A stretch of 53,150 bases of DNA, taken from contig JBMNON010000007.1 in assembly GCA_050943115.1 (NCBI GenBank), forward strand, positions 1 through 53,150, written 5' to 3'. Both the position numbers and the translations under genes were made by a program. The stretch is from Patescibacteria group bacterium (lineage in GTDB: Bacteria > Patescibacteriota > Microgenomatia > UBA12405). Below, piece by piece: positions 14,111 through 53,033 of this stretch. The notes below the pieces were generated by a model. That model saw only the letters and a list, made by a program, of their open reading frames with translations, searched no databases and was not told the origin of the DNA. Each line of letters starts with the position of its first letter. Within the stretch, counting starts at the first letter, position 1.

Positions 14111-17100
14111 TTATAGATTTCCCAGGAAGCCAAAGACTTCTTTTAGGTTGGTAATAACCAAGTCGAAGGCATTATCGGTGGCTTTTGGAGTAATAGTAAC
14201 CGTATCAATTGATTTACTAATGTTACCAGCACTATCTTTGGAAATGGCACGTAAATGATAAACCTTAGCCGGGGTGAGGCCGGAGATAATTACAACGTGA
14301 TTGTAGGAAAGGTTTTGATCTTCCTGTGACAACTGGTTGTAGTCGGTACCGGACCCTTCGCCGTACTCTACCTGACTGGTAGCCGGCTCATCAGTATTCC
14401 AGCTAATAATTAACTGGGAGAGGGCGGGTTGAGCGGTAGAATTGGACGGTGGGCTGTTAGCGCCTTCCACACTCATCTCAGAAATTTGCGGAGCACGGGT
14501 ATCAGAAGCAGTGGTAACCCTGACAGTGTCCGAGACAGCCTCGTTACCGATAATATCCTGACCCCTAACCCTTAACACGTAACCGGTATCAGGGAAGAGA
14601 CCTCGGATGATCATGCGATGATCGCCATCCCTTAGTTCAATATCAACATTATCCCGGACTAGTTCGGGGTTGTTCTCGGGATAGTAAGTGACGATGGAAG
14701 AAATGGCAGTATTGGACTCCCAAGTAACAAGTAGGGTTGATTGGGCAGTATTGGCTACCTGCTGAACACGGACATTGGTGACTCGGGGACGGGGAAGGGT
14801 TTCGAAATCAAGGATAGTGCCCTCGTATTCAGTATCCTCTTCATCGAAAGTATTGATTTTGTAGTAGTACTTAGTGCCATCCTCCAGCTGATTTAATTCA
14901 ACAGAATAGGAAGTTTCCAACTTCGAGGTACTGACTTCCTTGGCGCCGCCAAAACTAGTGGTAGTTCCGTAATAAATTTTGGCTTTGGTAGCATTTTTGG
15001 TGGTAAAGTTGACCAGAGCGCTGCTAATACCAACGTTACTCAGCCTTACCTCCTTAACTTCAGGCGGCGGTTCGGTAGTAAAATCCATTTCGTCACTTTC
15101 GCCGGTGTTACCATCTTCATCAGTCCAACGGGCTTTGAAGTAATATTTCGTGCCTGGAGATAAGTTGGTGAGCTGGATCTCGTGATCGGTTATGTGAACG
15201 GAACGATAGGCTTCGTCATCAAAATAGTTTCCGCTTGCCAAACCATAAGCAACCTTACTGTCACAAGTACGGCTGGTAGTCCAACTGATTGTAGCTTTTG
15301 AGGTGGTAATGGAGGAGGATGCGGGACCGGAAGTTAGTGGTGCCGGGACGGTATAGGAACCTTTGGGAATGATGGAAACTGCCGAAGAATAAGACGGACT
15401 GGCAATCGATTGATCAGAATTGTCGGTGGTGCCAACCCGCCAATAATAGCGCTTGGATTCTTCGACAGTGTCAACATAAGAAAAGCTAGTGGTTTGGGCC
15501 ACTTCTTCCCAGGTCAGAGCATCTTCAGAGCGCTCAATATGGTAAGTCAGGTTTCCTGTGCCTTTATAGGTGGGTTCACTCCAAACCAGGGATGATCGCC
15601 AAATAGAAACATCTTTGATAGAACTGTCGGCGACAGTTAGATTAGTAGGAGGATCAGGCAGTTCGGAATAAAGGTAGAAAGTGGCAGAGATGGTGTTGGT
15701 GGGTGAGTAGTTACTATTGCTGTCAACAGCAACGACATAAATAGTGTTGGCACCTTTTCTCAGGCCGGGAACCGTGAAGGTATCAATAGAAGTAGATTCA
15801 GTAGCTATATAGGTGGCTGAGTTAGAGGTTATGGTGGCGTAAGAAACCGGTGGTGGAGTATTAATCATGTAATAGTAGGTGTCAATAGTGTTGCCGGAGG
15901 AAGGTTCCGCCTCAGGCCAACTAAAGGCAAAACTATTGGTATCGTTTTGACCGGGAGTAACGGTAATAAAATCTCCCTGGGCAAATTTAGGGGCCTCACC
16001 ACCGTAGTTAATAAAAGCAGTTCTAAGTTCTGAAGCGTTGCCGGCACGATCGAGGATGCGAAAGAAGATAGTATTCTGGCCTAGCTGTATCAAGTCCTGA
16101 GCGGATGCGGGAAGATAAAAGGGTTGAGCAATTCCAAGTGAATAGTATTCAAGATTGGTACTGGGATCAAGCGTTTCCCCTATCCAACTATCCCGGGAAT
16201 TTATGGCGTATTGGAAGCCAAGAACCTGGGAATGTTCGTCATTGCCGGCAGTGCCATTGGTGGTGGGCCAAGTAAAAAACATATCAGAAGTGCTGGAAAA
16301 GGTACCGCTAGCGGCAGAAATGGCAACTACGTTTTCGGGAGCTGTGTTATCAAAGTAAAAGGAAATATAGTTGGTTTCGTCAGGACCGACATAAGTGTTG
16401 TTGGCAATATCAATAGTTTTGATCTTGAAATAATAAAGATCGTCGCTTGAGGTAAGCCATTCGTAGCTGCGAAGGGCAGAGTTAGAGAAATCTATTTCAG
16501 TATCGGCAGTTATAAACTGGCAAGTAGTGCCGGTAGTGCTGACAGGTGAAGAACCAAGCAGTCCTTTTTGGGTAGCCGGATCGCCTTCAAGATCGTTACC
16601 TAGGTAAACACAGTAACCTTTGACTCCTTGGGCATCGGAACCATCATCCCAGCTAAAGAAAAGATCGTTTCGATTAAACCAAACCGGCTCGTCAGAATGG
16701 GAGTATTCATGCAAAGCTTCGTCATGCGCTTTCATCTTCATATTGGCACCATTCGTCGGTCTTGATTGATCAATGATAAAAGAAGGTGTACCCGTTGCGG
16801 TAGTCCAATCTGATTCTCCCGATTTATTATCAATGGCTTTGACGCGCCAATAATAGTTATCGGTGCTGAGTTCCTGACCTTCAGAGCCTTCGTTGTATGT
16901 CCCTTCGCCAGCAGCCTGACCAACAGTAAAAGACTGAGTTCCCTGGGCTGCTTGGACAGAAACATAATCAATTATGGGAGATCCAAACTCAGATTCAGTA
17001 TCGACTTGGATTCGGTATCCGACAGTGTCGACTGCGTTAGGGTCACTCAAAACAAAGGAGAGCATCGGTTGAAGGCTATTAGTATACTGGCCGTTGATAA

Positions 17101-20100
17101 AGAACGATGATTCCGGGATGACAGGAGCTGAGGGAGGTGTGTTCATCACAACTCTAATATCAGCTTCGTCTTCAGTATTGTTACCATAGCTAACCCAATC
17201 GGAACAAAGGTTGGTAGCATCACAGGCACGAGCTTGCCAATGATAGCTCTCGGTATCGGCAAGACCATCAACAGTAACCTGAGCCGTGACAATAGCACCT
17301 GTATATACTACGCTGGCGCCGATGTTTGTGGCAACATTGGAAAATGGAGTTCCAAGTGTTTGAATTTCGACTTGCGGAGTAATCGTGTCCTCACTGTCAC
17401 CATCCTGAACCTGAAAAGTAGCAATAAATGATGATTCATCAGTGTTTCCTCCCTGTCCAATAGCGGTGGTATTATCAGTTTTAAATTGACGTAGATTAAG
17501 TGGATCAGATGATTTTCCACCTAAAAATATAGTACCAATTCCGCCATTTTGGGCACTAGCACCAGATGCAACACCCCCATTAACACTCAATACTGAAAAG
17601 TTTGTGGTGTTTGTTCCGTAATACAATGCAATTCGACCACCACCACCAGCTCCACCATCGTATGTATAGTTGGCCGTGTTGCCTCCATTTGCAGTAACTG
17701 ATCCGGAACCTATTAATGTTTCTGTAGTAACCCAGATTGATCCGCCTGATCCTCCACCATTACCATGGTAGTTGTCATAAAGCCCACCGTTACCCCCATT
17801 TGCTGAAATCACTCCATTCAGAGTGGCGGTGGCACCAATACTAATCTTGATGACACCACCACCATGACCAGCAGCATATCCGTGATGGCCACCCCCTGAG
17901 CCAAGTAAATCAGGAGAACGTTCTTCACCATAAGGCACTTTGTTCCCCGCCCGACTTTGTCCATTACCTCCTTCACCGCCATAAGCAGCACCGCCGGCTC
18001 CGTTAGAGCCGCTAACTCCGGTTCCCGGTCCATAACCATCCGAGTAGCCTTTTCCGTTAACATTTATTGAACCAGAAGGATTTACGGTAAGGTTCTCGTC
18101 AATAGCAAGTATAAGTTTATTAACTTCTTCATTGGTATTTTCTGAATGGCTTAAGGTCCCGTTTACGGTAACATTATCATAATGTCTGGCAATATTAGTT
18201 TCGAGAGTAGCTCCTGAAGGAATTGTAAGATTACCACCCGTACTAATAACAGCAAAATCGCAGCCATTGTCAACTAATATTGCTGACCAGTTAAGGGTGG
18301 TGTAATCAATAGCTGCCGAACTTTGACAGATAAAGGAAGATCCGTTTAGTAAATTAATGGTATTTACATTTAAGTTTCCCGATAGATCAAAAAATGATTT
18401 TTGATCAATAACAATCGTTGATGTGACATTAAGTGAGGAAGAATAATCTATGTTGGAGTAATCAGTAATAGTAATATTGGATACATTAAGTGAGTCTGGC
18501 AATACTGTTTTGGCAACTTTAGACCGTAAGGAAGACCAGTTAGGATCGTTGTTGTCAACAATTAGATCACCATAACTTATTGAACTTGATTTGAGATATA
18601 TTGTACCAGCACCGCCTTTTTGACAGGTAGAGGCTGCGCCGCTAGGTTTCCCTCCATATGCATATATTCTATCGATAGCAAAGGGCAAGCTATCATAATA
18701 AATTGCAATCCGGCCACCACCCCCACCTCCCCCATCCTTATCTGAATAGCCATCAGCAGAACCACCGCCAGATGCACTGATAGTGCTGCCACCTTTTACT
18801 TCATTGGCATCGATCCATACGGAACCACCGGCACCCCCACCACCACTGCCATCATAACTATAACTTGGACCGGCATTTCCATTTGCAGATATCGGGCCGC
18901 CAACGTCAATATAACCACCAACAATAAACTTAATTGCACCACCACCGGCACCGCCGTATCCGGAAACTTGACCTCCCCCACTTCCCAAAGTCACTGGCTG
19001 AGTAGCTGAACCATAAGGAACAATACTCCCTGCCCGTGTTCTACCATTACCGCCATTACCGCCATGAGCAGCACCACCAGATCCATCTGCTCCATCTGTA
19101 CCCTCGCCCGTACCATAGCCAATACCAAAACCTTTGCCATTAACATTGACCGATCCGGATGAACTTATTGAAAGATTGCCGCCAATAGTATAGTTGATTT
19201 TGTAAACTTCGGAATCGATATTTTCTGTATGAGTTAGGACTCCGTCGATAAAAACATTACTATAGCTTCGAGGTACATTCGAGTGAAGGGTAGAACCAGA
19301 CGGAATAGTTAAATCGACACCGCTGCTTAAGATAGCAAAGGTGCCGCCATTATCGACTAATATGCCTCCGTTCCAATCGATAGTGTTATAAACGATATTT
19401 GCACCAAGTTGGCTAAATAGGGTGGCATTGTTGTGGACAATTAGATTGTCAGCAGTAATTCCTCCAGATGATTCAAGAAATGATTTTTGGTCGAGTGTAA
19501 GGCTTGAAACCACATTAAGGGAAGAAGTATAGTCGATGTTGGAGTAATTAGTAATGGCAAGATTATCCAAAGTAAGCGTGGAAGGAAGTGTTGTTTTAGC
19601 TACCCGGGTACGGGAAGTAGACCAATCATTGTCCTTGTTGTCTATTACAAAATCGCCATTAGTTGCCGTAGCGGCTTTTAAGTAAATTGTGCCGGCACCG
19701 CCTTTTTGGGTTGCACTGTGATCCCCCTGAGGGATGCCTCCCTTGGCTGATATCTGACTTAACCCAACAGAATTTGTATCGTAATAGAGAGCAATGCGAC
19801 CACCACCACCACCACCACCATCACCATAATAAGTATTGGTAGCACCACCACCATCCGCACTTATAGTGCTACTACCAGTAATCTCGTTTGCATTAATCCA
19901 AATTGAACCTCCAGAACCACCTCCAGAACCGTGTGAATAAAAATCAGAAGTAACACTATCGCCTCCATTTGCAGATACCGGACCGCCCACATTAAAAGTA
20001 CCAGTGATAATAAGCTTAACAGCACCACCGCCATGTCCTGCCTGAAAAGTATTATTATGACCGCCCCCACTTCCTATCGTTGCTGGCTGAGTAGCTGAAC

Positions 20101-21799
20101 CGTAAGAAATTACGCTTCCAAGTCTGGTTTGACCATTACCGCCATTGCCTCCGTGAGCTGCGCCTCCGGCACCCTTGTCTCCGTCAGCGCCATCTCCAGT
20201 ACCATTGCCATCAGAATAACCTTTACTATCTACATCGATAGAACCGGTAGAGTTTATTGTGAAGTCACCATCAACGTTATAGTTGATTTTGTAGGTGTCA
20301 GAGTTAGTATTGTCGGTATGAGTTAATGTGCCATTTATGGTGACACCTGAATAGCTTCGAGGAACATTGGCATGTAAGGTAGAGGTGGCTGGCACAATTA
20401 AGTTACCTCCTCCACTTAACATCGAGAAGGTACCTCCGTTATCGACTAAAATACCACCAGTCCAATCAAGAGAATTATAGTTAATATTCGCGCCAACATG
20501 ATTAAAAAAGTAGGCATTGTGATGTACAACAAGATTATTAACGGTAGCATTGTTGCTTAAACCAAAAAAGGCTTTTTGGTCAACTGTGAGGGATGATTCT
20601 ACATTAAGTACCGAAGTATATTCGATATCGGCAAAATTTGTTATTGTTAGATTATCGACTGTAAGATTGGAAGGTAGGGGGGTTTTGGCTAAGCGTGGGC
20701 GAGATGTGGACCAAACGATATCTTCATTGTCAACGACAATATCGCCGTATGTCGCAGAAACATTTTTTAGGAAAATTGTACCGGCGCCACCCTTTTGACA
20801 GTTGGTGTGATCACCATCAGGTTTAGCGCCTTGTACAGATATTTGTTCCAGAGTGACGCTACTTGAAGAATAATATAGTGCAATACGTCCACCGGCTCCA
20901 CCACCACCATCACCATAATAGGTATTGATAGTCCCTCCGCCTTCAGCAAGTAAATTACCACTACCATTTAAAGAGCCCGTTTGAATCCAGATTGATCCGC
21001 CGGAACCACCGCCGGAACCATGAGAATAATAATCAGAAGTAGAACTTCGAGCACCATTTGCAGAAATTGTTCCGTTAATCGTTGTTGTTCCCGATACTGT
21101 TAACTTTACTGCTCCTCCACCAACGCCAGACTGATTATTGTAGTCACCCCCTCCGCTTCCTAAAGTAACAGGTTGAGTTAGCGAACCGTAAGAGATAACC
21201 CCACCGGCCCTGGTCTGACCATTACCACCGAAACCACCGTGAGCAGCACCTCCGGCACCTCCGTTACCATCAGTACCCTCTCCCGGACCGGAACCTTTAC
21301 CATACCCTTTTGAATTAGCGTTTATAGTACCATGAACATAGGCGTTGCCGGATTGAACATCAATGTTGATTTTGCCGACTATTGAAGCACCGGAACCGGC
21401 AGTATGGGTAATGTTGCCTCCCGGATAGACAGTTAAATCACCGGCAGCTAGAGTAAGGGCACCAAGGGATATGGCGTCATAGGAGAACTCAAGAGATGAG
21501 GCAGCAGTATTATCTATTTTTCCTAATATAAGGGAATTTATAGTGACCGGTGAAGAAAGAATAACAGTAACATTGGAATCTATGAGAACGTCGTCGTCAG
21601 CAGCGGGGACAATATCAGTGTCCCAATTGAGAGGGTCAAGCCAGGAAGTACCATCGCCACCACCGTCCCAAATAATACTAGCGGCAGCCCGAATGTACCA
21701 AGTATGGAAAACAGGGAAGAGATAGACACTTGAGAAAAGACTGATGAAAAAAGCCGTCAGAATAAATACTCGTTTATTAAAAAGTTTCCTAATTTTCAT
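14111..21799 (-). CDS. Giant (2562 aa) surface protein: four ~362-aa Gly-rich beta-repeat units plus C-terminal FN3/Ig-like domains
   Basis: N-terminal anchor or signal; repeated KG(Y/F)...GAA(H/Y)GG.GGNG...GSGGG...GGRIA units; FN3-like segments (ISWTTS...YYFKARW, LTPAKVYHLRAIS). Confidence 0.9.
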   Translation of the reverse strand: MKIRKLFNKRVFILTAFFISLFSSVYLFPVFHTWYIRAAASIIWDGGGDGTSWLDPLNWDTDIVPAADDDVLIDSNVTVILSSPVTINSLILGKIDNTAASSLEFSYDAISLGALTLAAGDLTVYPGGNITHTAGSGASIVGKINIDVQSGNAYVHGTINANSKGYGKGSGPGEGTDGNGGAGGAAHGGFGGNGQTRAGGVISYGSLTQPVTLGSGGGDYNNQSGVGGGAVKLTVSGTTTINGTISANGARSSTSDYYSHGSGGGSGGSIWIQTGSLNGSGNLLAEGGGTINTYYGDGGGGAGGRIALYYSSSSVTLEQISVQGAKPDGDHTNCQKGGAGTIFLKNVSATYGDIVVDNEDIVWSTSRPRLAKTPLPSNLTVDNLTITNFADIEYTSVLNVESSLTVDQKAFFGLSNNATVNNLVVHHNAYFFNHVGANINYNSLDWTGGILVDNGGTFSMLSGGGNLIVPATSTLHANVPRSYSGVTINGTLTHTDNTNSDTYKINYNVDGDFTINSTGSIDVDSKGYSDGNGTGDGADGDKGAGGAAHGGNGGNGQTRLGSVISYGSATQPATIGSGGGHNNTFQAGHGGGAVKLIITGTFNVGGPVSANGGDSVTSDFYSHGSGGGSGGSIWINANEITGSSTISADGGGATNTYYGDGGGGGGGRIALYYDTNSVGLSQISAKGGIPQGDHSATQKGGAGTIYLKAATATNGDFVIDNKDNDWSTSRTRVAKTTLPSTLTLDNLAITNYSNIDYTSSLNVVSSLTLDQKSFLESSGGITADNLIVHNNATLFSQLGANIVYNTIDWNGGILVDNGGTFAILSSGVDLTIPSGSTLHSNVPRSYSNVFIDGVLTHTENIDSEVYKINYTIGGNLSISSSGSVNVNGKGFGIGYGTGEGTDGADGSGGAAHGGNGGNGRTRAGSIVPYGSATQPVTLGSGGGQVSGYGGAGGGAIKFIVGGYIDVGGPISANGNAGPSYSYDGSGGGGAGGSVWIDANEVKGGSTISASGGGSADGYSDKDGGGGGGGRIAIYYDSLPFAIDRIYAYGGKPSGAASTCQKGGAGTIYLKSSSISYGDLIVDNNDPNWSSLRSKVAKTVLPDSLNVSNITITDYSNIDYSSSLNVTSTIVIDQKSFFDLSGNLNVNTINLLNGSSFICQSSAAIDYTTLNWSAILVDNGCDFAVISTGGNLTIPSGATLETNIARHYDNVTVNGTLSHSENTNEEVNKLILAIDENLTVNPSGSINVNGKGYSDGYGPGTGVSGSNGAGGAAYGGEGGNGQSRAGNKVPYGEERSPDLLGSGGGHHGYAAGHGGGVIKISIGATATLNGVISANGGNGGLYDNYHGNGGGSGGSIWVTTETLIGSGSVTANGGNTANYTYDGGAGGGGRIALYYGTNTTNFSVLSVNGGVASGASAQNGGIGTIFLGGKSSDPLNLRQFKTDNTTAIGQGGNTDESSFIATFQVQDGDSEDTITPQVEIQTLGTPFSNVATNIGASVVYTGAIVTAQVTVDGLADTESYHWQARACDATNLCSDWVSYGNNTEDEADIRVVMNTPPSAPVIPESSFFINGQYTNSLQPMLSFVLSDPNAVDTVGYRIQVDTESEFGSPIIDYVSVQAAQGTQSFTVGQAAGEGTYNEGSEGQELSTDNYYWRVKAIDNKSGESDWTTATGTPSFIIDQSRPTNGANMKMKAHDEALHEYSHSDEPVWFNRNDLFFSWDDGSDAQGVKGYCVYLGNDLEGDPATQKGLLGSSPVSTTGTTCQFITADTEIDFSNSALRSYEWLTSSDDLYYFKIKTIDIANNTYVGPDETNYISFYFDNTAPENVVAISAASGTFSSTSDMFFTWPTTNGTAGNDEHSQVLGFQYAINSRDSWIGETLDPSTNLEYYSLGIAQPFYLPASAQDLIQLGQNTIFFRILDRAGNASELRTAFINYGGEAPKFAQGDFITVTPGQNDTNSFAFSWPEAEPSSGNTIDTYYYMINTPPPVSYATITSNSATYIATESTSIDTFTVPGLRKGANTIYVVAVDSNSNYSPTNTISATFYLYSELPDPPTNLTVADSSIKDVSIWRSSLVWSEPTYKGTGNLTYHIERSEDALTWEEVAQTTSFSYVDTVEESKRYYWRVGTTDNSDQSIASPSYSSAVSIIPKGSYTVPAPLTSGPASSSITTSKATISWTTSRTCDSKVAYGLASGNYFDDEAYRSVHITDHEIQLTNLSPGTKYYFKARWTDEDGNTGESDEMDFTTEPPPEVKEVRLSNVGISSALVNFTTKNATKAKIYYGTTTSFGGAKEVSTSKLETSYSVELNQLEDGTKYYYKINTFDEEDTEYEGTILDFETLPRPRVTNVRVQQVANTAQSTLLVTWESNTAISSIVTYYPENNPELVRDNVDIELRDGDHRMIIRGLFPDTGYVLRVRGQDIIGNEAVSDTVRVTTASDTRAPQISEMSVEGANSPPSNSTAQPALSQLIISWNTDEPATSQVEYGEGSGTDYNQLSQEDQNLSYNHVVIISGLTPAKVYHLRAISKDSAGNISKSIDTVTITPKATDNAFDLVITNLKEVFGFLGNL
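17600..21400 (-). repeat. Four diverged in-frame tandem units within the giant gene
   Basis: Equivalent Lys codons of the KG(Y/F) motif at 21308, 20222, 19133 and 18050 give spacings of 1086, 1089 and 1083 bp. Boundaries approximate. Confidence 0.85.
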
Positions 21800-40767: not shown

Positions 40768-41376
40768 CTATTTCTTTTGAGCTAGAATTATTAGATGTTT
40801 TTCATTCCCCGATGTATCAACCTCCGAAAAGATAATTTCGAAGTTAGCATTTTTTACTAGCTCAAGATTCTTTTTTACCCCATAATGGCTCCATTCCATC
40901 CCACCTCCAAAAAAATCATCTTCTTTTCCCTCCCATTCAGAAGCTCCCATCGTGATTAAAAGATATCCATCTTTTTTCAAGAAAGAGTTAATTTTATGCA
41001 AGATGTCTTCGTGTGTTTCTCTTTTGGTATGAAATATGGCATAAAACGACACAACGGCATCTACGCTATATTCTCCATCTCTCATCAATGACATATCTTC
41101 GACCTTGAAATTTCCTTGGGGTACGTTTTTCTTTGCTAACTCTATTTGTTTTTCAGAAATATCTATACCCATTACACTATGTCCTTTTTCAACAAAGAAG
41201 CGATCAACGGGTATCCCTGCGCCACAGCCAATGTCCAAAATGTGGGATTTGGGAGATAAAATCGCATTTAACTTTTCAAGATATTTATCGTTTTTAAACT
41301 GATCTCGGCTAGCAAGATAATTCCCGGCAAGTTTGTTATATTGGTTTTTTACAAAACTATTTGACACAACACTCAT
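40768..41376 (-). CDS. Class I SAM-dependent methyltransferase
   Basis: ILDIGCGAG, GIDISEKQIELAK, DAVVSFYAIFH, LKKDGYLLIT. Confidence 0.92.
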   Translation of the reverse strand: MSVVSNSFVKNQYNKLAGNYLASRDQFKNDKYLEKLNAILSPKSHILDIGCGAGIPVDRFFVEKGHSVMGIDISEKQIELAKKNVPQGNFKVEDMSLMRDGEYSVDAVVSFYAIFHTKRETHEDILHKINSFLKKDGYLLITMGASEWEGKEDDFFGGGMEWSHYGVKKNLELVKNANFEIIFSEVDTSGNEKHLIILAQKK

Positions 41377-41601: not shown

Positions 41602-41633
41602 CTAAAACATTAATAATTATTAATGTTTTGTCT
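41602..41633. repeat. Palindromic 32-bp repeat, copy 1
   Basis: CTAAAACATTAATAATTATTAATGTTTTGTCT; 26-bp perfect palindrome core. Confidence 0.9.
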
Positions 41634-43369
41634 TATAGATTATTTAGCTTATTAGCCAAGGCTTCCTGCTCTTTATATAACTCTTCGTCTTTGTATGTGT
41701 AATTTATTTCAGACTGGCTGAGCCATTGATTACTTTCCATCTTGGTAACAATAGTTTGAATGTTGCCGATTCTTATTGAAATGATCTCGTTAATTCGATC
41801 GTAATCTGCCTTATTTCTTTCATAAGCACTACCCCACTCTTTGACCTTCTGCCAACTGGGCTGAATATCCCGCAAGCTATTTAATACCGACTTCCAGCCA
41901 TCAATATCTGACTTTTTATAATTTGGAGGAACATAACCTCCGAACTCGTTAACTACCACCTGAACTTCGCAATCATTGATTTTTCCTACATAAACCCCAA
42001 GCCCGATATCCTGGAATCGTTTATCCAGGAGGTTTTCTTTTGTTTCATATTCCAGCCAGTAATTGGCAAGTTCTTCGGCGTCATAATAGCCAGTGGTACT
42101 GATTTCTCCGGTAAGAATATTATTATAACCGGCATCTTTAATAGCTTTGTCATAAGGGTATTTGCTTTTATCTTTTTCCAACTTACCAACTTCATTATTT
42201 TCAATAATTGATTTGGCTCGGGCGAGGGCGGCTTTTTCCAACTTTTCATTTCTCTTTAGCGGCTTTAGATTATTGTCGGTTCTTATTTTATTTATATGAG
42301 TGTAGTAATCGTCAATATTAAAAGAAGGTAATCCATGACTATCACCGTCTTTGCTAGCATCACGTTGTCTACTAATTAACTCTGCTTGTTTGCCAACGGG
42401 CAAGATACTACTGATTTCATTTAGTGATACAAAGCCTAGTTCTCGTGAATCTTTACTGCGTTTGCGATTATCACCCATGACAAAGACATAACCGTCGGGA
42501 ACGACAACCTTTTTACACTCACCTAAAAAAGCTGCCCCGAATGTGGATCTTGGCTTAGCAATATAAGGTTCTTTGACGATTTGACCGTTTAGGTAATAAT
42601 AACCGTCGCGTATTTCTATCTCATCTCCAGCAATTGCCACAACCCTTTTGACATAATCATTGACCTGACCTTGATCATTGGCGGTTCTACCAGAGCTGAA
42701 TATGACAATATCTCCCTTTTGAGGCTTGCTAATTAGCTTGTTAATAAATGAATAGCTATACATTTTGATACTCTCTTTATCTAGAATGGTCGGATTCATT
42801 GAATTACCAAGCACATCTCTTGAAAATGAAGTAAGCCCAAAGATATAGAAAAGGCCAAAGAAACCTATTATCCACATAGGCAATAAAATAAAGAAGCCAA
42901 AAAGTGTGTCACCAAGATTCCGCATAACAACAAAAGGTAAGAATACTAATGACCCGACGAATCGTAACATCTTCTTAAATCTATTTAGGTGGGGGTTGGT
43001 AGCAAGGGAATAATGAAGAGCAAAGGAAACCGTCATTACAATGAATGCAATTATTCCAACAACGACAATAGAAATGAGGCTTATTTGGGAGTAAATACTC
43101 GTAAGGTTCTTATCACTGGTATTAGACAGGACAACCGCGACTACGCCGAACATAGGCATGCTAATAAGCCAAATTATTCTGGATAAGGAAGCTGCTTTCA
43201 TCCATTTGGATTTTTTTGGCTTGGTACGGTTTGGGTTTTTATCACATGTTAGCTCGTGGCTGTCTGATTCCTTTTTTGTTTCAAACTCCTGTTGGCAATA
43301 ATCACAAGTCCAGACATAATCTTTTTTAACTTTTGTTTTTTGGGGCTTTAACTCGTGTCCTGATTTCAC
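41633..43369 (-). CDS. Fusion protein: Zn finger, TM segments, signal peptidase I (S26) domain, CAP/SCP domain
   Basis: CDYC..F.....HE..C; catalytic GNSMNPT and YVKRV, GDNR..SKDSR; CAP-like INKIR....L.RNEKLE.AA...GE.....W...ENLL...IGLG. Confidence 0.85.
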   Translation of the reverse strand: MKSGHELKPQKTKVKKDYVWTCDYCQQEFETKKESDSHELTCDKNPNRTKPKKSKWMKAASLSRIIWLISMPMFGVVAVVLSNTSDKNLTSIYSQISLISIVVVGIIAFIVMTVSFALHYSLATNPHLNRFKKMLRFVGSLVFLPFVVMRNLGDTLFGFFILLPMWIIGFFGLFYIFGLTSFSRDVLGNSMNPTILDKESIKMYSYSFINKLISKPQKGDIVIFSSGRTANDQGQVNDYVKRVVAIAGDEIEIRDGYYYLNGQIVKEPYIAKPRSTFGAAFLGECKKVVVPDGYVFVMGDNRKRSKDSRELGFVSLNEISSILPVGKQAELISRQRDASKDGDSHGLPSFNIDDYYTHINKIRTDNNLKPLKRNEKLEKAALARAKSIIENNEVGKLEKDKSKYPYDKAIKDAGYNNILTGEISTTGYYDAEELANYWLEYETKENLLDKRFQDIGLGVYVGKINDCEVQVVVNEFGGYVPPNYKKSDIDGWKSVLNSLRDIQPSWQKVKEWGSAYERNKADYDRINEIISIRIGNIQTIVTKMESNQWLSQSEINYTYKDEELYKEQEALANKLNNL

Positions 43370-43559: not shown

Positions 43560-43591
43560 CTAAAACATTAATAATTATTAATGTTTTATCT
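43560..43591. repeat. Palindromic 32-bp repeat, copy 2
   Basis: CTAAAACATTAATAATTATTAATGTTTTATCT; 31/32 identical to copy 1; 28-bp perfect palindrome 43561-43588. Confidence 0.9.
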
Positions 43592-43593
43592 GG

Positions 43594-44037
43594 TTATGCC
43601 TGTTGCCTTTTAAGAGCTTTCCAATCCAAGAATTCTACCTCACCACTTTCATCAACCAAAAATACATATAAGTTTAGTTTGTCACAGACATCATAAGGCA
43701 AACGTCTTTTTACTAGATCTCTAAAAGAAGCGGGGTAGCCTACCCCATATTTATATCTATATTTATAGCCTCTGGCTCCAGCTGACCTCATGCGGGTTAC
43801 AATCTGTCCAATAGCTAAATTAAAATTGACTTCTCTATGTGAGTTGGGAAATTTGGCTTTCGGGCTAGCATCACCTTTGCATTCAATTAACCAATAACGA
43901 GAAACTTTATCATTCCTAACTTTGATATCTACTCCATGCTCCTTTAGAGTTTTTGATTTTAGACTTTTACTCCAACCGTTTGTAGTTAGGTAATCGATAA
44001 TCCTTTCTTGAACAAAATCTTCTGTTAATAGAGTCAT
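43594..44037 (-). CDS. PD-(D/E)XK restriction-endonuclease-like protein
   Basis: ED.VQ..I..YL...GW, GVDIKV, LIECKG, AIGQI motif order. Confidence 0.75.
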   Translation of the reverse strand: MTLLTEDFVQERIIDYLTTNGWSKSLKSKTLKEHGVDIKVRNDKVSRYWLIECKGDASPKAKFPNSHREVNFNLAIGQIVTRMRSAGARGYKYRYKYGVGYPASFRDLVKRRLPYDVCDKLNLYVFLVDESGEVEFLDWKALKRQQA

Positions 44038-44038
44038 G

Positions 44039-45157
44039 TTAGTTAGGTATTCTGCTTGCTAATAAATTATGCAGTGTCCGGTCTTCAATTTTGAATAACT
44101 CATTTTTAATACCCGATATATTTTTTCCAATAAATATTTCCGGAGCATCAGGATTGATGATGTAATGCTCTACATTACTAAAACCTAACTCACGAAGTTT
44201 ATTAAGTAAACAAACTACAAAAAAGTTTATCGATATATAGAAGTAAGGTTCCCTCGGTTTAATAATATTTATCAAATCCTTAAAGATGAAATCATCACTA
44301 TATACAGTATCTCCATGGATAATCTTGTTTCTTAGTTTATAGAATTCCTCTGCCCAAATCTGGTGTAAGGTCAGTTGTTCATAACCTGTAACTTTACCGT
44401 AATTTACTATTGGATATTTATACTGTGTAAATTTTTTTGAGTACCCAATGGTTGAATATTTGAGAATATTGTTTCTAAGTTGAGGTCGCCCTGTCTCTCC
44501 GAATAATAATTCAAAAGCCATAACCATTAGTAAAATTCTTGAATGCCAAGATTGTTCATGACTATTCCGATAGGCATTAAAAAGCGGATTTAACGACTGA
44601 ATAATTTGGCTTTTACCTTTATTTGTTGATGAATTTGTCAGACAATCTTCTAAAGCATTTAGTATTTTCAAATCAGGATTGAAACTAATTGGTAGATTTA
44701 CATGCTCAGGTTTTTGAAACGCAACCTGTCCAATCTGATATCCGCCAGTAGTTATACGATGAATCGCTCCGGCTTGGGTAGAAATGCCAGTCTCACCAAC
44801 TATGAATCTCTGATAGAAAACTTCAAAGTTATCACTAGTAATAAATGACCATTGATTATTCTCCAAAATCCCAAGTAGTAGAAGTATATTTTTTAGTGAT
44901 TCGATTTTTGATATGGTTAACTGAGTTGGGTTAGAAAAGTTTATTTTATCGCCAGTAATTATTGCAGGATTTGGTACGGGATTTCCTTTGTAAAGCTGAT
45001 AGCAGCCTATTAGTTTATCAATGTGAGTTCTCAGGGCAGTATCCTTTATAAGCTTTATTTTGAATTTATTGTAAGGCCATAATTTCAATCCATTAAACTG
45101 AACCATTCCATTAAGTGGTAGATATGGCAGTAGAATTATTGTTTTATATACTTTCAT
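44039..45157 (-). CDS. HEPN-domain protein (ApeA-like architecture)
   Basis: N-terminal alpha/beta region; C-terminal MAFELLFG...FYKLRNKIIHG with the Rx4H motif. Confidence 0.72.
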   Translation of the reverse strand: MKVYKTIILLPYLPLNGMVQFNGLKLWPYNKFKIKLIKDTALRTHIDKLIGCYQLYKGNPVPNPAIITGDKINFSNPTQLTISKIESLKNILLLLGILENNQWSFITSDNFEVFYQRFIVGETGISTQAGAIHRITTGGYQIGQVAFQKPEHVNLPISFNPDLKILNALEDCLTNSSTNKGKSQIIQSLNPLFNAYRNSHEQSWHSRILLMVMAFELLFGETGRPQLRNNILKYSTIGYSKKFTQYKYPIVNYGKVTGYEQLTLHQIWAEEFYKLRNKIIHGDTVYSDDFIFKDLINIIKPREPYFYISINFFVVCLLNKLRELGFSNVEHYIINPDAPEIFIGKNISGIKNELFKIEDRTLHNLLASRIPN

Positions 45158-45861
45158 AATTCATCAGTAAGAACTGCCAATTCATCAATAGTTTTTCCTG
45201 TTCCTTTTTGGGCTATGTATTCCAAAAAATTAAATACGTGGTTCGTAATCCCCTTAAATTCTGGAATAATAAATGGTCGATGTAGAGAATAGTTTCGTTT
45301 AACCAAGAGGTAATCGAGTAATTGTTTACTATTAGGATATGGAGTCGTCATTCTAGTAATTCCATCTAGCTTCTGACCTTTTTCTTTTTTCTTGGCTGCT
45401 ATTTCGTCAGTAGATTGTTTATTATCAAAGTCCGTAAAATCTATAAGACTTGGTAAGTGGTCTTTGATATAACCCAGCATAACAACTTCAGTAGGGTCTA
45501 GCTTACTTTTATTCTGGCTTAATTTTAATGGATGGACCAAACCATTTGGAACTGGTTGCTTAATTTTGTTGATAGCGTAGCCTTTAGCCAAAAATATCCC
45601 CTTAAATAGGTACTCACAACCTAATGAGGTAAAAGCGTTTTCTAACCGAGGATTTTTCAATATTTCTTGACGTTTTCTTTCATCCCATGGAGTATGGATA
45701 TTAGAAAGTCTTTGGGCTTCTTTAATCAAATAGGCTCCTGTCCTAATAAAATCGTCCGATTCTTGAGATGTGAATATATGTCTTACAAACGAACTATTTT
45801 TGAACTTATCTATTGACGGATTAAACCATAATCTATTTATCTGATTATGAAGTAGTGCCAT
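45154..45861 (-). CDS. Putative HEPN-like protein
   Basis: SLGCEYLFKGIFL helix (ExxxK) and KRNYSLH (Rx4H); ATGA overlap with the next gene. Confidence 0.55.
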   Translation of the reverse strand: MALLHNQINRLWFNPSIDKFKNSSFVRHIFTSQESDDFIRTGAYLIKEAQRLSNIHTPWDERKRQEILKNPRLENAFTSLGCEYLFKGIFLAKGYAINKIKQPVPNGLVHPLKLSQNKSKLDPTEVVMLGYIKDHLPSLIDFTDFDNKQSTDEIAAKKKEKGQKLDGITRMTTPYPNSKQLLDYLLVKRNYSLHRPFIIPEFKGITNHVFNFLEYIAQKGTGKTIDELAVLTDEL

Positions 45862-46021
45862 ATTAGCTAGCTAACTAGCTCTCAGAGATTCATAATATCC
45901 GAAAACTTTATTTGGGAATCTAGTTCTCGAAATGTGGTTCGATAATCTTTGACCCTTCTAATTATCAGATAATATTTTGTTTAGGTTTTTGCAGCCGTGA
46001 TTAGTTATTCGAGGAAAGCGG

Positions 46022-46693
46022 TTAATCAAAAAAATTACCTACAAGACAGGACTCAATGATTTGATCCATTGATTGTCCTCTTAATGTTTGGATATAGCTT
46101 TCTAGTTCTTTGAGGTCAGGTTTATCGTTGCCTTCGGGGTTGGTGAGAACGACCAAGGATTCTTTGAGTTTTTCAATTTTTTCTTTGGGTAACCCTCTTT
46201 TTTGGAGATTTTCACCATAATAGTGGTAGAACATGAAATGATTTAGTTCGTGCTTGGCAACGCTTAAATGTTTTTCGGCTGTATTGTTGCGGTAGGTCAT
46301 AAACCAACGGTCTTCGAAAGAGTAGGGCTGGATGGTTAGTGTGGTTAAATAAACAGTAATTTTGTCAAAGGAAAATGGTTTGCCATAAACTGATTCGAGA
46401 ACATTGATGATTTCGTCTTGATGAGTATTAAGTAATGTTTCTATCCCCAAAACCAAAAGAGGGGTGGTGTTGAGGTAACTTTTAGGTAAAGTTGTTAAAA
46501 AATCGGTTATTATCTCCTTGGCATCTTGTTTAGTTTTGGCTTTAGCAATTTCCTTTCTAAATTGTTCGGGTAGTGTGGCTAGAAGTTTAGTTTGAATATT
46601 ATCACGCCCATGCTTGAGATAAGTGAACTTCCAAACTGAATTTAAATAGTTATTAGTATCTTTATCGATTGAGTAGTCAACAATAAATTTCAT
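46022..46693 (-). CDS. Hypothetical protein with HExxH zincin-like motif
   Basis: VAKHELNHFMFY followed by KESL; TATACT 5 nt upstream of ATG. Confidence 0.65.
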   Translation of the reverse strand: MKFIVDYSIDKDTNNYLNSVWKFTYLKHGRDNIQTKLLATLPEQFRKEIAKAKTKQDAKEIITDFLTTLPKSYLNTTPLLVLGIETLLNTHQDEIINVLESVYGKPFSFDKITVYLTTLTIQPYSFEDRWFMTYRNNTAEKHLSVAKHELNHFMFYHYYGENLQKRGLPKEKIEKLKESLVVLTNPEGNDKPDLKELESYIQTLRGQSMDQIIESCLVGNFFD

Positions 46694-46818: not shown

Positions 46819-46974
46819 TCAGCCGTCAGAGCTGTCGCAGTAGTCGCAGGCATCCTGATCACAGGAGTCGCTATCGCAACCCCCGTAGTCGCAGCTGCCT
46901 CCACCACTGTCGCAGGAGTCGCAGGCCGTCATGACAACCTGCTCGTCATCGATGAGAGAGATAATGTGGTTCAT
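46819..46974 (-). CDS. Putative RiPP precursor peptide, 51 aa with seven Cys-Asp motifs (absent from the ORF track)
   Basis: MNHIISLIDDEQVVMTACDSCDSGGGSCDYGGCDSDSCDQDACDYCDSSDG*; SD AAGGAG inside the last codons of the rSAM gene; starts 1 nt after its TGA. Confidence 0.85.
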   Translation of the reverse strand: MNHIISLIDDEQVVMTACDSCDSGGGSCDYGGCDSDSCDQDACDYCDSSDG

Positions 46975-46975
46975 G

Positions 46976-48286
46976 TCATTCTCCTTGTTGCAGAATCCTT
47001 TTTGTTACAAGTTGGCCGATAAGATTGGTCGCCTCAGGATGGTCCAGACCGAGGTAGCTCCTCAGTTCTTCAAATAGTACATCACCTCCTTTCCTTTCTG
47101 TGGCAAACTTGAATAGTTCGGGAGATACAGGGACCCAGCTCCTTACACCTATACACAGTAGACCCCCAAACGATTCCTCCCGAAGCTTTAACTTTGGGTT
47201 GAACCTCAGTGGAGTCTGGGAATCAAACTGTGAGACAGGCCGAAGCGAAGCAAGTGGCCTGAGTGGAATTCGATCGAAGTTGCAGTATGGATCTGGCTTG
47301 TTGATTGAGCCATTTACCAATAGCGCTTCGATTTTACACCCACCGCCACAACGCTTCTTGAGATTACACGATTGACACTCGTCAGGGATCCAAGCCTCTT
47401 GGCGCCACTCCTCCATGCTATCCCAGGCTTGTTGAATACCATCGAACACGCTGCCGTAGCACTGAGGTGCGTGGGAACAAGGCCGTATCTGTCCGTTGAA
47501 ACCGATAGTACAACTGGTTTTGCCAGCGGTACAGCTTCGTGAGGATCCGAACAACCTTCTGGTGGTATCATTGCCAAACGAACAGCCCGGATAAAACTCC
47601 AAAGAGTCTATCCTTAGTCCAAGTTCTTGTTTGGCTCTGGCCAGTTCATCGAGCATAAACCCGAATTCTGCTGGCGTTAACCGATAGGCCGAAAAGTCCT
47701 GGCAGTTTCCCGGAACGGCCGCCTTGGTTGCTGAAAAGGTGTTGACCCCCAGCTTCTTAACAAAGCAAGCAGTTTCGAAGATTTCTGTCAGGTTGAGCTT
47801 GGTTACTACCATGTTAACAGTAACGTTCAATCCTGCGTTAAGAGCACGCTTGATGCCTCTTGCTGTCCTGCTTCTCGAATTCCTCCTTTGAGTGATTAGA
47901 TCGTTTGTCTCGGAGTTACCCGAGGGCAGTGATGCCAGAACGGATTTGATGCCAAGCTCTTTAAGCTTTGCAGCATCACTATCGGTTAGCGTTGAGAGAT
48001 TGCTGTTGAGATAGATATCTACTCCAGCTTCCCGCAGCATAACCAGATACGGTAACAATGCACCAAGGACCAAGAGTGGTTCTCCGCCAGTTACGGTCAC
48101 CGCAAGAACACCATTCCTGATGATCTCGGTAACCGAGGCTAAATAGTACCTCCTTGTTTCTTCAGTCAATGGTTGTACCGCCGTCTCGTCTTCACGCCAA
48201 TGGTTATAACAATGAACGCAATTGTAATTGCATTCAGGAGTCACTTCCCACTGGACATAGACAGGTGCCGATAGTTTCCTAAACAT
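46976..48286 (-). CDS. Radical SAM/SPASM peptide-modifying enzyme with probable C-terminal PqqD-like (RRE) domain
   Basis: CNYNCVHC, TGGEP, NSN; SPASM CTAGKTSCTI...IRPC...CQSCNLKKRCGGGC...DPYC; C-terminal LREESFGGLL...winged helix. Start ATG 48286 with SD AAGGAG. Confidence 0.92.
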   Translation of the reverse strand: MFRKLSAPVYVQWEVTPECNYNCVHCYNHWREDETAVQPLTEETRRYYLASVTEIIRNGVLAVTVTGGEPLLVLGALLPYLVMLREAGVDIYLNSNLSTLTDSDAAKLKELGIKSVLASLPSGNSETNDLITQRRNSRSRTARGIKRALNAGLNVTVNMVVTKLNLTEIFETACFVKKLGVNTFSATKAAVPGNCQDFSAYRLTPAEFGFMLDELARAKQELGLRIDSLEFYPGCSFGNDTTRRLFGSSRSCTAGKTSCTIGFNGQIRPCSHAPQCYGSVFDGIQQAWDSMEEWRQEAWIPDECQSCNLKKRCGGGCKIEALLVNGSINKPDPYCNFDRIPLRPLASLRPVSQFDSQTPLRFNPKLKLREESFGGLLCIGVRSWVPVSPELFKFATERKGGDVLFEELRSYLGLDHPEATNLIGQLVTKRILQQGE

Positions 48287-48934
48287 GGCGCTCTCCTTAA
48301 TAGAGAATAATATGTCCACAATATGTAAAGGTGCTTGAAGGCTAGTCTTCAAACCTTCACTCAAGTTAATACTTGATGGCATATTCTACCATTCTTTACG
48401 TTGTTTACAACATGACTGTCCTATATGTTTATTTAATCCGTACTACACTAAAGGGTTGGTTTTATTAAAATAATTGGGGTTGAAGTTTTTTCTTAGACAA
48501 AGACTGTTCCCCGCCATCACTGAAATATGGAATCCAGCGAGAAAGAATGATCTTGGGGACGGAACAGTTTCTGGCTAGGGTTGCTTGTTATAGGTTAAGC
48601 TCAGATGTTAAAATTTGTAGTACTCTAAAATTTCCGTTTTTTTGCTGGAGCCGGCAAGAGGTTCGAATCCTAACCAGTTTCAACAAAAAACAGTGTCGAG
48701 CGTTACTAAAGATATCTTCCGTATTTCCGGGACTAAGGAGGAAAATCCGATGGCGAAAAAAACTAATTACTGTCTTGGTTAGTTTGGTAATTACCTATCA
48801 GTCCGTAACTTTCTACTGGGTTAGGAACAGCCGGCTTGCGACAAAAGAACGGAAATTATTTAACTCTCAGAGATTCGAAATTTTTTTGGTAATCTAGTGC
48901 CCTCCTGGGTTGACTTGTTTCTTGAAAATGAGCA

Positions 48935-52589: not shown

Positions 52590-53033
52590 TTAAACACTAA
52601 AGACTAATGCTATAAATATAAGAACTAGCAAAACTAAAAAGATTATTCCAATAATTTTCAAGATTTTTAGCATAACTTTTCTCATTTTAACTAGGCCTTC
52701 AATTTCATTCTCTACCTGTTCTTCTTTTCTTGCAGTACTGAAACCTAGTTTTGAGCTGATGGTATTAACAAAACCGGAAATGACGCCTGTTAAATAATGA
52801 ACTATGCCATATAGCAAGAAAATTCCAATAACATAAATGAAGTTAGTAAATGAGTTTTCAAGCCCATCACATTGTGAATTATGGGTCGACCCTTTGATGT
52901 TAACTACTAAACATTTTCCTTGAGACTGGAGATAAGAAATATAAAGAAACAGCAAAACAGGCAGACCAACAACTGCTCCAATTAACCAATAAGTAGTACT
53001 ATTATCTTTTTTTTGTACCATATTTTTGTTCAT
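52590..53033 (-). CDS. Hypothetical membrane protein
   Basis: Three hydrophobic segments; no family recognised. Confidence 0.7.
   Translation of the reverse strand: MNKNMVQKKDNSTTYWLIGAVVGLPVLLFLYISYLQSQGKCLVVNIKGSTHNSQCDGLENSFTNFIYVIGIFLLYGIVHYLTGVISGFVNTISSKLGFSTARKEEQVENEIEGLVKMRKVMLKILKIIGIIFLVLLVLIFIALVFSV

Follow-up and report, generated by a model that had tools for sequence, protein, structure and literature searches.

We analyzed a stretch of 53,150 nucleotides (nt) from a Patescibacteria group bacterium (contig JBMNON010000007.1, positions 1 to 53,150; hereafter the window), focusing on three consecutive open reading frames (ORFs) of its minus strand, which we named A, B, and C in the order in which they are read. 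Gene A (45154..45861) encodes 235 amino acids (aa), gene B (44039..45157) encodes 372 aa, and gene C (43594..44037) encodes 147 aa. The stop codon of A and the start codon of B overlap in an ATGA on the coding strand (TCAT on the plus strand, 45154-45157), and a single base, 44038, separates the stop of B from the ATG of C. A first-pass annotation had described these three ORFs and their junctions, and both can be read directly from the sequence. It had also called the region AT-rich and noted a palindromic end. Indeed, the G+C (GC) content of 43-46 kb was 0.32-0.34 vs. about 0.36-0.49 across most of the window, with a similarly low GC over 49-53 kb, and a perfect palindrome of 28 nt follows C. 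The annotation went on to propose a candidate anti-phage system made of two HEPN proteins, possibly sharing one heterodimeric RNase site, and a PD-(D/E)XK nuclease. We consider it somewhat more probable than its opposite that the locus is a set of portable effectors stacked in a defense island, rather than a single inseparable machine of three proteins.

A bare Rx4-6H string is common and was present in many neighboring ORFs. The motifs singled out in the first-pass annotation were all found (RNYSLH in A, RNKIIH in B, and D37...E52-x-K54 in C), and their residues were invariant in 40, 84, and 32 homologues, respectively. Because these residues are invariant across homologues, the sequence comparisons indicate that the motifs of A, B, and C are beyond chance.

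Sixty-three relatives of B were found by word index, and an exhaustive profile search placed 1086 clusters (at 50% identity) in its family at E ≤ 1e-3, 572 at E ≤ 1e-10, and 155 at E ≤ 1e-30. Across 84 relatives, reaching down to ~20% identity, W268, R276, and H281 were the sole invariant residues, and E216, F272, Y273, L275, and G282 were conserved in at least 90%. R276 and H281, which were also invariant in 48 close relatives, delimit the Rx4H motif R276-N-K-I-I-H281 (context LRNKIIHG; 44315..44332, on the minus strand, as are all gene-internal coordinates of the window below), with R and H present in 84/84. The AlphaFold2 (AF2) model of B built on the family alignment reached a predicted local distance difference test score (pLDDT) of 92.2 and a predicted template modeling score (pTM) of 0.91. 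Secondary structure and conservation outline an N-terminal alpha/beta domain (~aa 1-160, 44678..45157), and the AF2 topology, together with the profile matches of relatives described below, outlines a HEPN-like helical domain (~aa 163-330, 44168..44671), beyond which the model shows a short beta region at the C-terminus. Within the helical part of the model, helix 204-219 bears E216 (AFELLFG), a beta-hairpin insert occupies 245-263, helix 264-280 carries R276 near its end, and H281 lies in a loop before the next helix, 305-323.

In per-member Pfam scans, the only families matched repeatedly across the B family were HEPN families. HEPN_Apea was matched by 3 of the 48 close members and, at E ≤ 0.01, by 6 of the 84 distant members (best E 2.1e-5), and HEPN_Swt1 and HEPN_RiboL-PSP by one member each. 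The relative P0332 scored 24.8 bits against HEPN_Apea, for which the gathering cut-off is 24.4, and its match spans the stretch from AFE (residues 237-239) to the Rx4H motif (305-310). We therefore regard an ApeA-like HEPN domain in B as well supported but not proven. The N-terminal domain, with conserved residues P11, Y12, T107-S-D-N110-F (TSDNF, 107-111), G130, and P150, had no match in any library searched, including Foldseek, and, by analogy with ApeA, it may be a sensor.

Several further observations concern B and its relatives. One family member, P0371 (671 aa), carries its B-like region at residues 300-589 behind an N-terminus that matches the PADLOC candidate PDC-S44 (E 2e-7), a fusion that ties the B family to a candidate defense protein. 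In locus L020, the B gene (434-1555) is broken by an in-frame stop into 434-874 and 878-1555, which may reflect pseudogenization or misassembly; a comparable interruption is seen in L012 (7935-8099 and 8103-9077). Three small contigs from an RNA-seq-labeled biogas library fall inside B, which is weak evidence for its transcription. A tblastn search of plasmids with B and one distant relative returned no match.

The homologues of A numbered 47, at 52-71% identity, and every one came from the candidate phyla radiation (CPR) or from a metagenome. In the 40 that were aligned, K188-R189-N190-x3-H194-R195-P-F and E83/Y84/K87/G88 were invariant, the former enclosing the Rx4H motif R189-N-Y-S-L-H194 (context KRNYSLHRPF; 45280..45297; invariant in 40/40). 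Alignment diversity was low, with an effective sequence number (Neff) of 2.2, so that invariance tells less here than it does in B. The AF2 model on the family alignment (pLDDT 88.6, pTM 0.86) is an all-alpha protein with a beta-containing insert: helix 61-92 bears E83, the insert covers 93-177, helix 178-191 ends in R189-N190, H194-R195 sits in the loop after it, and helix 203-221 follows. The Rx4H motif and the helix-2 acid occupy canonical HEPN helix positions. As judged by its sequences, A would be a small helical family unrelated to B and so far restricted to CPR.

Section 7 of the published HEPN survey (PMC3710099) defines the fold as a four-helix up-down bundle with frequent inserts between helices 2 and 3 and a conserved acid in helix 2. 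Judged at the level of secondary structure, the models of both A and B match this definition: the R is placed at the final turn of one helix and the H in the loop behind it, a long helix comes after, and an acid in the preceding helix and an insert are present.

C had more than 297 homologues at 65-84% identity. Its catalytic core runs from D37 to K54 (GVD37IK...LIE52CK54; 43876..43929), and E6, D37, E52, K54, and Q78 were invariant in 32 homologues. The window protein itself matched NOV_C (PF13020) at E 4e-4 with 20.8 bits, where the cut-off is 22.1, and Mrr_cat (PF04471) at E 0.06; among the relatives, 21/32 matched NOV_C (best E 1e-5) and 9/32 matched Mrr_cat. The earlier assignment of the third gene to the PD-(D/E)XK nucleases was thereby borne out, and we class C, by sequence, as a small predicted nuclease of NOV_C/Mrr-like PD-(D/E)XK type. 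In IMG/VR, C was found on a single viral contig only (L051, 218-676, 59% identity), showing that the family is occasionally virus-borne; A was absent from that database. We also considered C as the restriction endonuclease of a local restriction-modification (R-M) pair and rejected the idea: the nearest methyltransferase (40768-41376), from which C is separated by a signal peptidase gene, is a generic class I S-adenosylmethionine (SAM) enzyme (Methyltransf_25/11, CMAS) and not of DNA-methylase type, which makes such a role for C unlikely. A 147-aa ORF at 52590-53033 was examined as a possible paralogue of C and likewise rejected.

We then fetched 56 loci with relatives of these genes and scanned them with hidden Markov models (HMMs) of the A, B, and C families. 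A lay directly upstream of B in 9 distinct loci, with the 4-nt ATGA overlap in 6, and pairwise identities of A and B were correlated (Pearson r = 0.80), a value that is indicative only, as the pairs are non-independent. Where B was more than ~55% identical to the window protein, A was present in 9/11 distinct loci, the exceptions being L018 and L020. By contrast, B occurred without A in L006 (WWE3), L018, L021, L030, L050 (Gemmatimonadales), a whole clade at ~40% identity, and most of the wider family, and A occurred without B in L036 and L037. An HMM search for divergent copies of A beside distant B genes returned matches of only 0-4 bits to Zn-ribbon/HEPN neighbors, which we dismissed as noise.

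The order A-B-C recurred on the contigs of L014 and L023 (68-70% B identity), so the three genes do co-occur elsewhere, a point that the first-pass annotation had suggested checking. These are the closest relatives only, however, and in other loci C stood at or near the end of operons unrelated to one another. It followed a type III Mod-x-Res set with an ATGA overlap in L044, two DNA methylases in L048, a type I-like HsdR with a fused M-S gene in L054, a Dam-like methylase and a DUF6996/6997 protein in L052 (where an AAA_13 ATPase comes after C), and a 1118-aa unknown protein in L041; in 4/5 of these contexts its junction was a 4-nt overlap or a gap of 4-5 nt. Within one clade, A-B is thus a genuine module, whereas C forms an independent one; their joint occurrence as A-B-C recurs but is recent. 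The comparison did not support an obligate three-gene unit, C standing beside B only in the closest relatives and in other operons otherwise, and it speaks against an obligate heterodimeric HEPN site, A and B each being found alone.

In the ~40% clade (L012, L024-L026, L029), a conserved 128-aa two-helix membrane protein lies directly upstream of B in place of A (L012 7595-7981, L024 1527-1913, L025 3427-3813, L026 4891-5277, L029 1096-1482). A Zn-ribbon protein of ~217 aa, whose C-terminus looks like a classical HEPN (..AVEKYLKAFL..RTLSHDL..), is encoded downstream of B in L025 (5516-6166), L026 (6396-7055), and L027 (2425-3078). The set found in this clade may be a different B-based system. 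More neighbors of B carry RHGLMH or RNGLIH (L022 1053-1706, L020 1761-2417, L025 4909-5511) and, from these motifs, are further candidate HEPN-like genes of the same islands.

The first-pass annotation had counted HEPN and PD-(D/E)XK domains among common defense effectors, and the three genes, each of them conserved, do occur in neighborhoods of defense type. Type I hsdRMS genes stood directly before A in L036 (by Pfam annotation) and in L016 and L010 (by BLASTP clustering with L036), with A following hsdS or hsdR in all three. L004 carried a type II methylase and an MvaI/BcnI-family enzyme and then A-B, and a 503-aa TIR_2 protein preceded A-B in L039 and L009. SIR2_2, DUF5677, Fic, NYN, and an AAA_14/DUF4143 ATPase were encoded nearby in related loci, and serine recombinases lay near the cassette in five. 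When the window ORFs of 80 aa or more were compared with the other fetched loci, only A, B, and C had relatives there at E ≤ 1e-10, and this lack of shared flanking ORFs indicates that A, B, and C move as cassettes. No tRNA gene or Rfam element marking an integration site was found in the window.

The distribution of the genes was patchy. The pattern WAEEFYK occurred in only 7 loci of 185,579 species genomes, and the window contig itself recurred at 99% identity or above in digester, sludge, and landfill metagenomes. Named homologues came from Microgenomates-group, WWE3, Roizmanbacteria, Shapirobacteria, Woesebacteria, and Kaiserbacteria metagenome-assembled genomes (MAGs), which makes a CPR origin of the window likely, and the B family includes non-CPR bacteria. 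The MAGs of L009 and L012 are labeled "uncultured Pseudomonadales" and "uncultured Gammaproteobacteria," every other named relative being from CPR; these two labels probably reflect automated mislabeling or mis-binning.

The first-pass annotation could match the locus to no named system, and neither could we: the models of PADLOC, Pfam, and NCBIfam name none, A and B had no direct match in Pfam, PADLOC, NCBIfam, or PHROGs, and literature searches covering HEPN and defense systems brought up no description of the A, B, or C families. Close parallels were found between B and ApeA. The active-site motif of Ec1ApeA is RNKITH, and its mutation R521A abolishes defense (bioRxiv 10.64898/2026.03.20.713152); RNKIIH of B is near-identical to it. 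ApeA has an N-terminal domain followed by a C-terminal HEPN domain, which is the architecture predicted for B, HEPN_Apea (PF18739) is the sole Pfam family recurrently matched by B relatives, and a passage of PMC3710099 places ApeA-family genes in R-M operons as well. However, ApeA has ~600 aa, so that B is ~60% of its length; ApeA-NTD1 is a mostly beta domain of ~300 aa, whereas that of B is an alpha/beta domain of ~160 aa; and ApeA is a single gene, while B in the window clade is paired with a second protein, A. Because of its length, its N-terminal domain, the unmatched PADLOC model, and the sub-threshold Pfam score, we did not file B as an ApeA.

The HEPN anticodon nucleases PrrC and RloC share with A the position of a predicted HEPN RNase beside type I R-M genes (L036, L016, L010), and a table in PMC3710099 gives their logic as that of a latent RNase serving as a backup to restriction. 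In these proteins, an ABC-type ATPase is fused to HEPN, whereas no ATPase domain was found in A or B, and for this reason we did not assign A-B to PrrC/RloC. They are also R-M-linked, unlike the cassette of the window. Dazbog is a two-gene system, as is A-B, and the C-terminal part of its DzbB (PADLOC PDLC03836) was weakly matched by 4/105 B-family relatives (best E 3.7e-4). The DzbA (DUF262) partner is absent from A-B, A being unrelated to it, and the window proteins had no match to the Dazbog models in PADLOC. We did not assign A-B to Dazbog because it lacks DzbA and the DzbB similarity is marginal. HepT-MntA (HEPN-MNT) and RnlA-RnlB are two-gene cassettes with a dimeric HEPN RNase, as is proposed for A-B; A-B differs in having no nucleotidyltransferase or RnlB-like partner and in that A itself bears an Rx4H motif. 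Finally, C shares the E...D...ExK...Q core of NOV_C/DUF3883 and of the Mrr-type PD-(D/E)XK enzymes. It differs in being free-standing at 147 aa rather than forming the C-terminal domain of a large ATPase or helicase. Its habit of ending R-M operons was described by no model in Pfam, PADLOC, NCBIfam, or PHROGs; no C-specific literature search was made.

A number of results weigh against reading A and B as HEPN effectors of a defense island. The window B had no match to the Pfam HEPN models even at E 10, sequence-profile searches of the PDB with both the close and the broad B alignments were empty, and the PADLOC ApeA model was unmatched by B and 94 relatives. A Foldseek comparison, which the first-pass annotation had suggested as a check for HEPN folds, returned no PDB structure below E 0.1 for A or B: the full-length B model had its best PDB match to argininosuccinate lyase (E 0.18), with Csm6' the only HEPN protein in the list (E 4.1), and the full-length A model had a best PDB match of E 0.47, with no HEPN protein among what appeared to be helical-bundle noise, and no BFVD match below E 0.2. 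For A, the per-member Pfam scan of the family found no HEPN family, the PDB sequence-profile search with its alignment returned nothing, and hhalign of the A and B families gave a probability of <1%, so that the two profiles are unrelated. For the claim that both of the first two proteins are HEPN, support came for B from its relatives that match HEPN_Apea, and no profile or fold match was found for A. From its motif and predicted helix topology alone, A can reasonably be inferred to be HEPN-like, and this fold assignment is the weakest link of the whole interpretation. In addition, the window cassette has no R-M or TIR gene beside it, and the defense context elsewhere is partly anecdotal, as it draws on ~20 distinct loci.

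Under the interpretation that we prefer, of stacked portable modules, the first module would be the A-B pair, translationally coupled, co-varying, and usually placed behind a type I/II R-M or TIR gene. Each of A and B would form a composite Rx4H RNase site by dimerizing, and since A and B each exist alone, homodimers are more likely than an obligate A:B heterodimer. B would act like a compact ApeA, its dimer joining two R276/H281 motifs and its N-terminal domain holding the RNase off until a phage-derived cue is met. We infer that the enzymes would be latent and would be released by infection or by the disabling of the upstream R-M or TIR system, and that once active, they would cut tRNA, rRNA, or phage RNA and so halt phage growth, in the manner of PrrC and ApeA, as a second line behind restriction. 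A would probably be another RNase that acts as a dimer, if not a regulator of B, and it may also gate or tune B in the window clade. Its position at the end of R-M and TIR operons suggests that A may monitor these systems or serve as their backup, in the way that PrrC serves EcoprrI. Given the co-variation and the translational coupling, some physical or regulatory interaction between A and B is plausible. The second module would be C, a highly conserved minimal PD-(D/E)XK nuclease that independently rides the 3' ends of varied CPR R-M operons; in the window it is coupled to B and would add a DNA-cutting activity.

A bolder version of this scheme can also be framed. A-B would then be an unrecognized two-component anti-phage system. 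In it, A, as a new and highly divergent HEPN-like family limited to CPR, would physically link an upstream R-M or TIR system to B, the first member recognized here of a "mini-ApeA" RNase family with >1000 clusters, and A and B together might make a composite or heteromeric RNase firing once the first line is disabled. C, for its part, would stand for a separate class of minimal accessory nucleases that attach to the 3' ends of every R-M type in CPR. We regard this extended version as unlikely.

Other explanations share parts of the same evidence. The tight coupling in the window, with its ATGA overlap and 1-nt gap, the return of the A-B-C order in L014 and L023, the co-variation of A and B, and the need of HEPN sites for two domains would all be expected of an obligate three-component system in which A and B share a heterodimeric HEPN RNase site and C is a dedicated DNase. 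However, B occurs without A in L006, L018, L021, L030, L050, and the ~40% clade, A occurs without B in L036 and L037, the profiles of A and B are unrelated, and the closest relatives are the only ones in which C stands beside B, unrelated operons being its place in other loci, which leaves this account quite improbable. The pair could instead be a toxin-antitoxin or addiction module, in which one protein, probably B, is a toxic RNase that the other binds and neutralizes, stabilizing the island or R-M operon rather than sensing phage. A small upstream gene translationally coupled to a larger downstream one would suit this arrangement, as would the serine recombinases and mobile islands that accompany the pair, and HEPN toxins with protein antitoxins are known (RnlA-RnlB, HepT-MntA). 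Yet A has an invariant, enzyme-like E...RNx3HR and orphan occurrences, most members of the B family are without A, and no DNA-binding domain for autoregulation was found in library scans; we hold this to be improbable.

In another account, A is not a HEPN RNase at all, its RNx3H belonging to a different active or binding site of a novel helical fold. A would then be a sensor, an adaptor to R-M or TIR systems, or an unrelated enzyme, and B would be the sole nuclease. This agrees with the missing sequence, profile, or fold match of A to any HEPN, with the low diversity of its alignment (Neff 2.2), and with its adaptor-like placement behind different upstream systems. Still, compared position by position, A agrees with the HEPN definition in the placement of its motif (helix end, then loop), in its helix-2 acid, and in its H2-H3 insert, and we rate this possibility as doubtful, on a par with the toxin-antitoxin account. 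Finally, C is unusually conserved (65-84% identity across CPR lineages), and the cassette lies in the window among ordinary genes such as those for a signal peptidase and a methyltransferase, as might be the case if the three were housekeeping RNA-processing or DNA-repair genes of CPR, unrelated to conflict. The patchy occurrence of the genes (7 loci in 185,579 species genomes by the WAEEFYK pattern), the lack of shared synteny, and the repeated adjacency to R-M, TIR, SIR2, and recombinase genes make this explanation highly improbable.

The palindrome at the end of the locus, TAAAACATTAATAATTATTAATGTTTTA, is perfect over its 28 nt and lies at 43561-43588, 5 nt past the stop of C. A second, identical copy lies at 41603-41630, just 3' of the stop of the signal peptidase gene on the minus strand, so that the two copies bracket that gene; no other was found in the rest of the window or in the 56 related loci. 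As RNA, the element would form a hairpin of 12 bp, rich in A-U pairs (−11 kcal/mol, z −3.5) and without a U-tract. Its identical copy after the next gene suggests an element that is reused at gene ends and here closes the A-B-C unit. It is probably the 3' end marker of the A-B-C transcription unit, and its reuse may be that of a terminator-like or a protein-binding element. A 12-nt palindrome, TTAGCTAGCTAA, lies at 45863-45874, 1 nt upstream of the ATG of A. We rejected it as a conserved operator because it was not found upstream of A in other loci. A scan for promoter and terminator consensus sequences was uninformative, with counts at or below the shuffle expectation.

Around the cassette, the window encodes a signal peptidase fused to a CAP domain, the class I SAM methyltransferase named above, an HExxH protein of 223 aa, and a radical-SAM/SPASM enzyme next to a Cys-rich peptide. 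The fusion (41633-43369, 578 aa) combines a CxxC/H..C zinc-finger-like N-segment, membrane helices, signal peptidase I (S26), and a CAP (cysteine-rich secretory protein) domain, which is an unusual architecture. The 223-aa protein (46022-46693), upstream of A, contains HELNH (HExxH), has no Pfam match, and was not conserved beside A-B in other loci; it could be a metallopeptidase. At 46819-48382, a radical-SAM/SPASM enzyme (468 aa) is immediately followed by a 51-aa Cys/Asp-rich peptide with 8 Cys (...CDSCDSGGGSCDYGGCDSDSCDQDACDYCDSSDG), and the two look like a maturase-precursor pair of a ribosomally synthesized and post-translationally modified peptide (RiPP). The GC around them, ~0.49, is the window maximum. 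A giant ORF of 2562 aa lies on the minus strand at 14111-21799.

CPR bacteria (Patescibacteria) have tiny genomes, and to our knowledge, few defense genes beyond R-M have been recognized in them. Against this background, A, B, and C represent three candidate effector families unnamed in current defense catalogues, and that of B, at more than 1000 sequence clusters, reaches beyond CPR. It is plausible that A-B-C belongs with known R-M-linked HEPN RNase effectors, joined by a nuclease of the restriction fold, although this placement is predicted throughout, and the present value of the genes is as well-delimited targets for experiments. The way in which C occurs points to a general accessory nuclease that restriction operons can take up, unnamed in the libraries that were searched. 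If B is active, it would be a compact relative of ApeA that could help in studying the control of a HEPN RNase by a small N-terminal sensor, and the A-B pair would allow the linkage of a HEPN module to preceding R-M or TIR systems to be tested.

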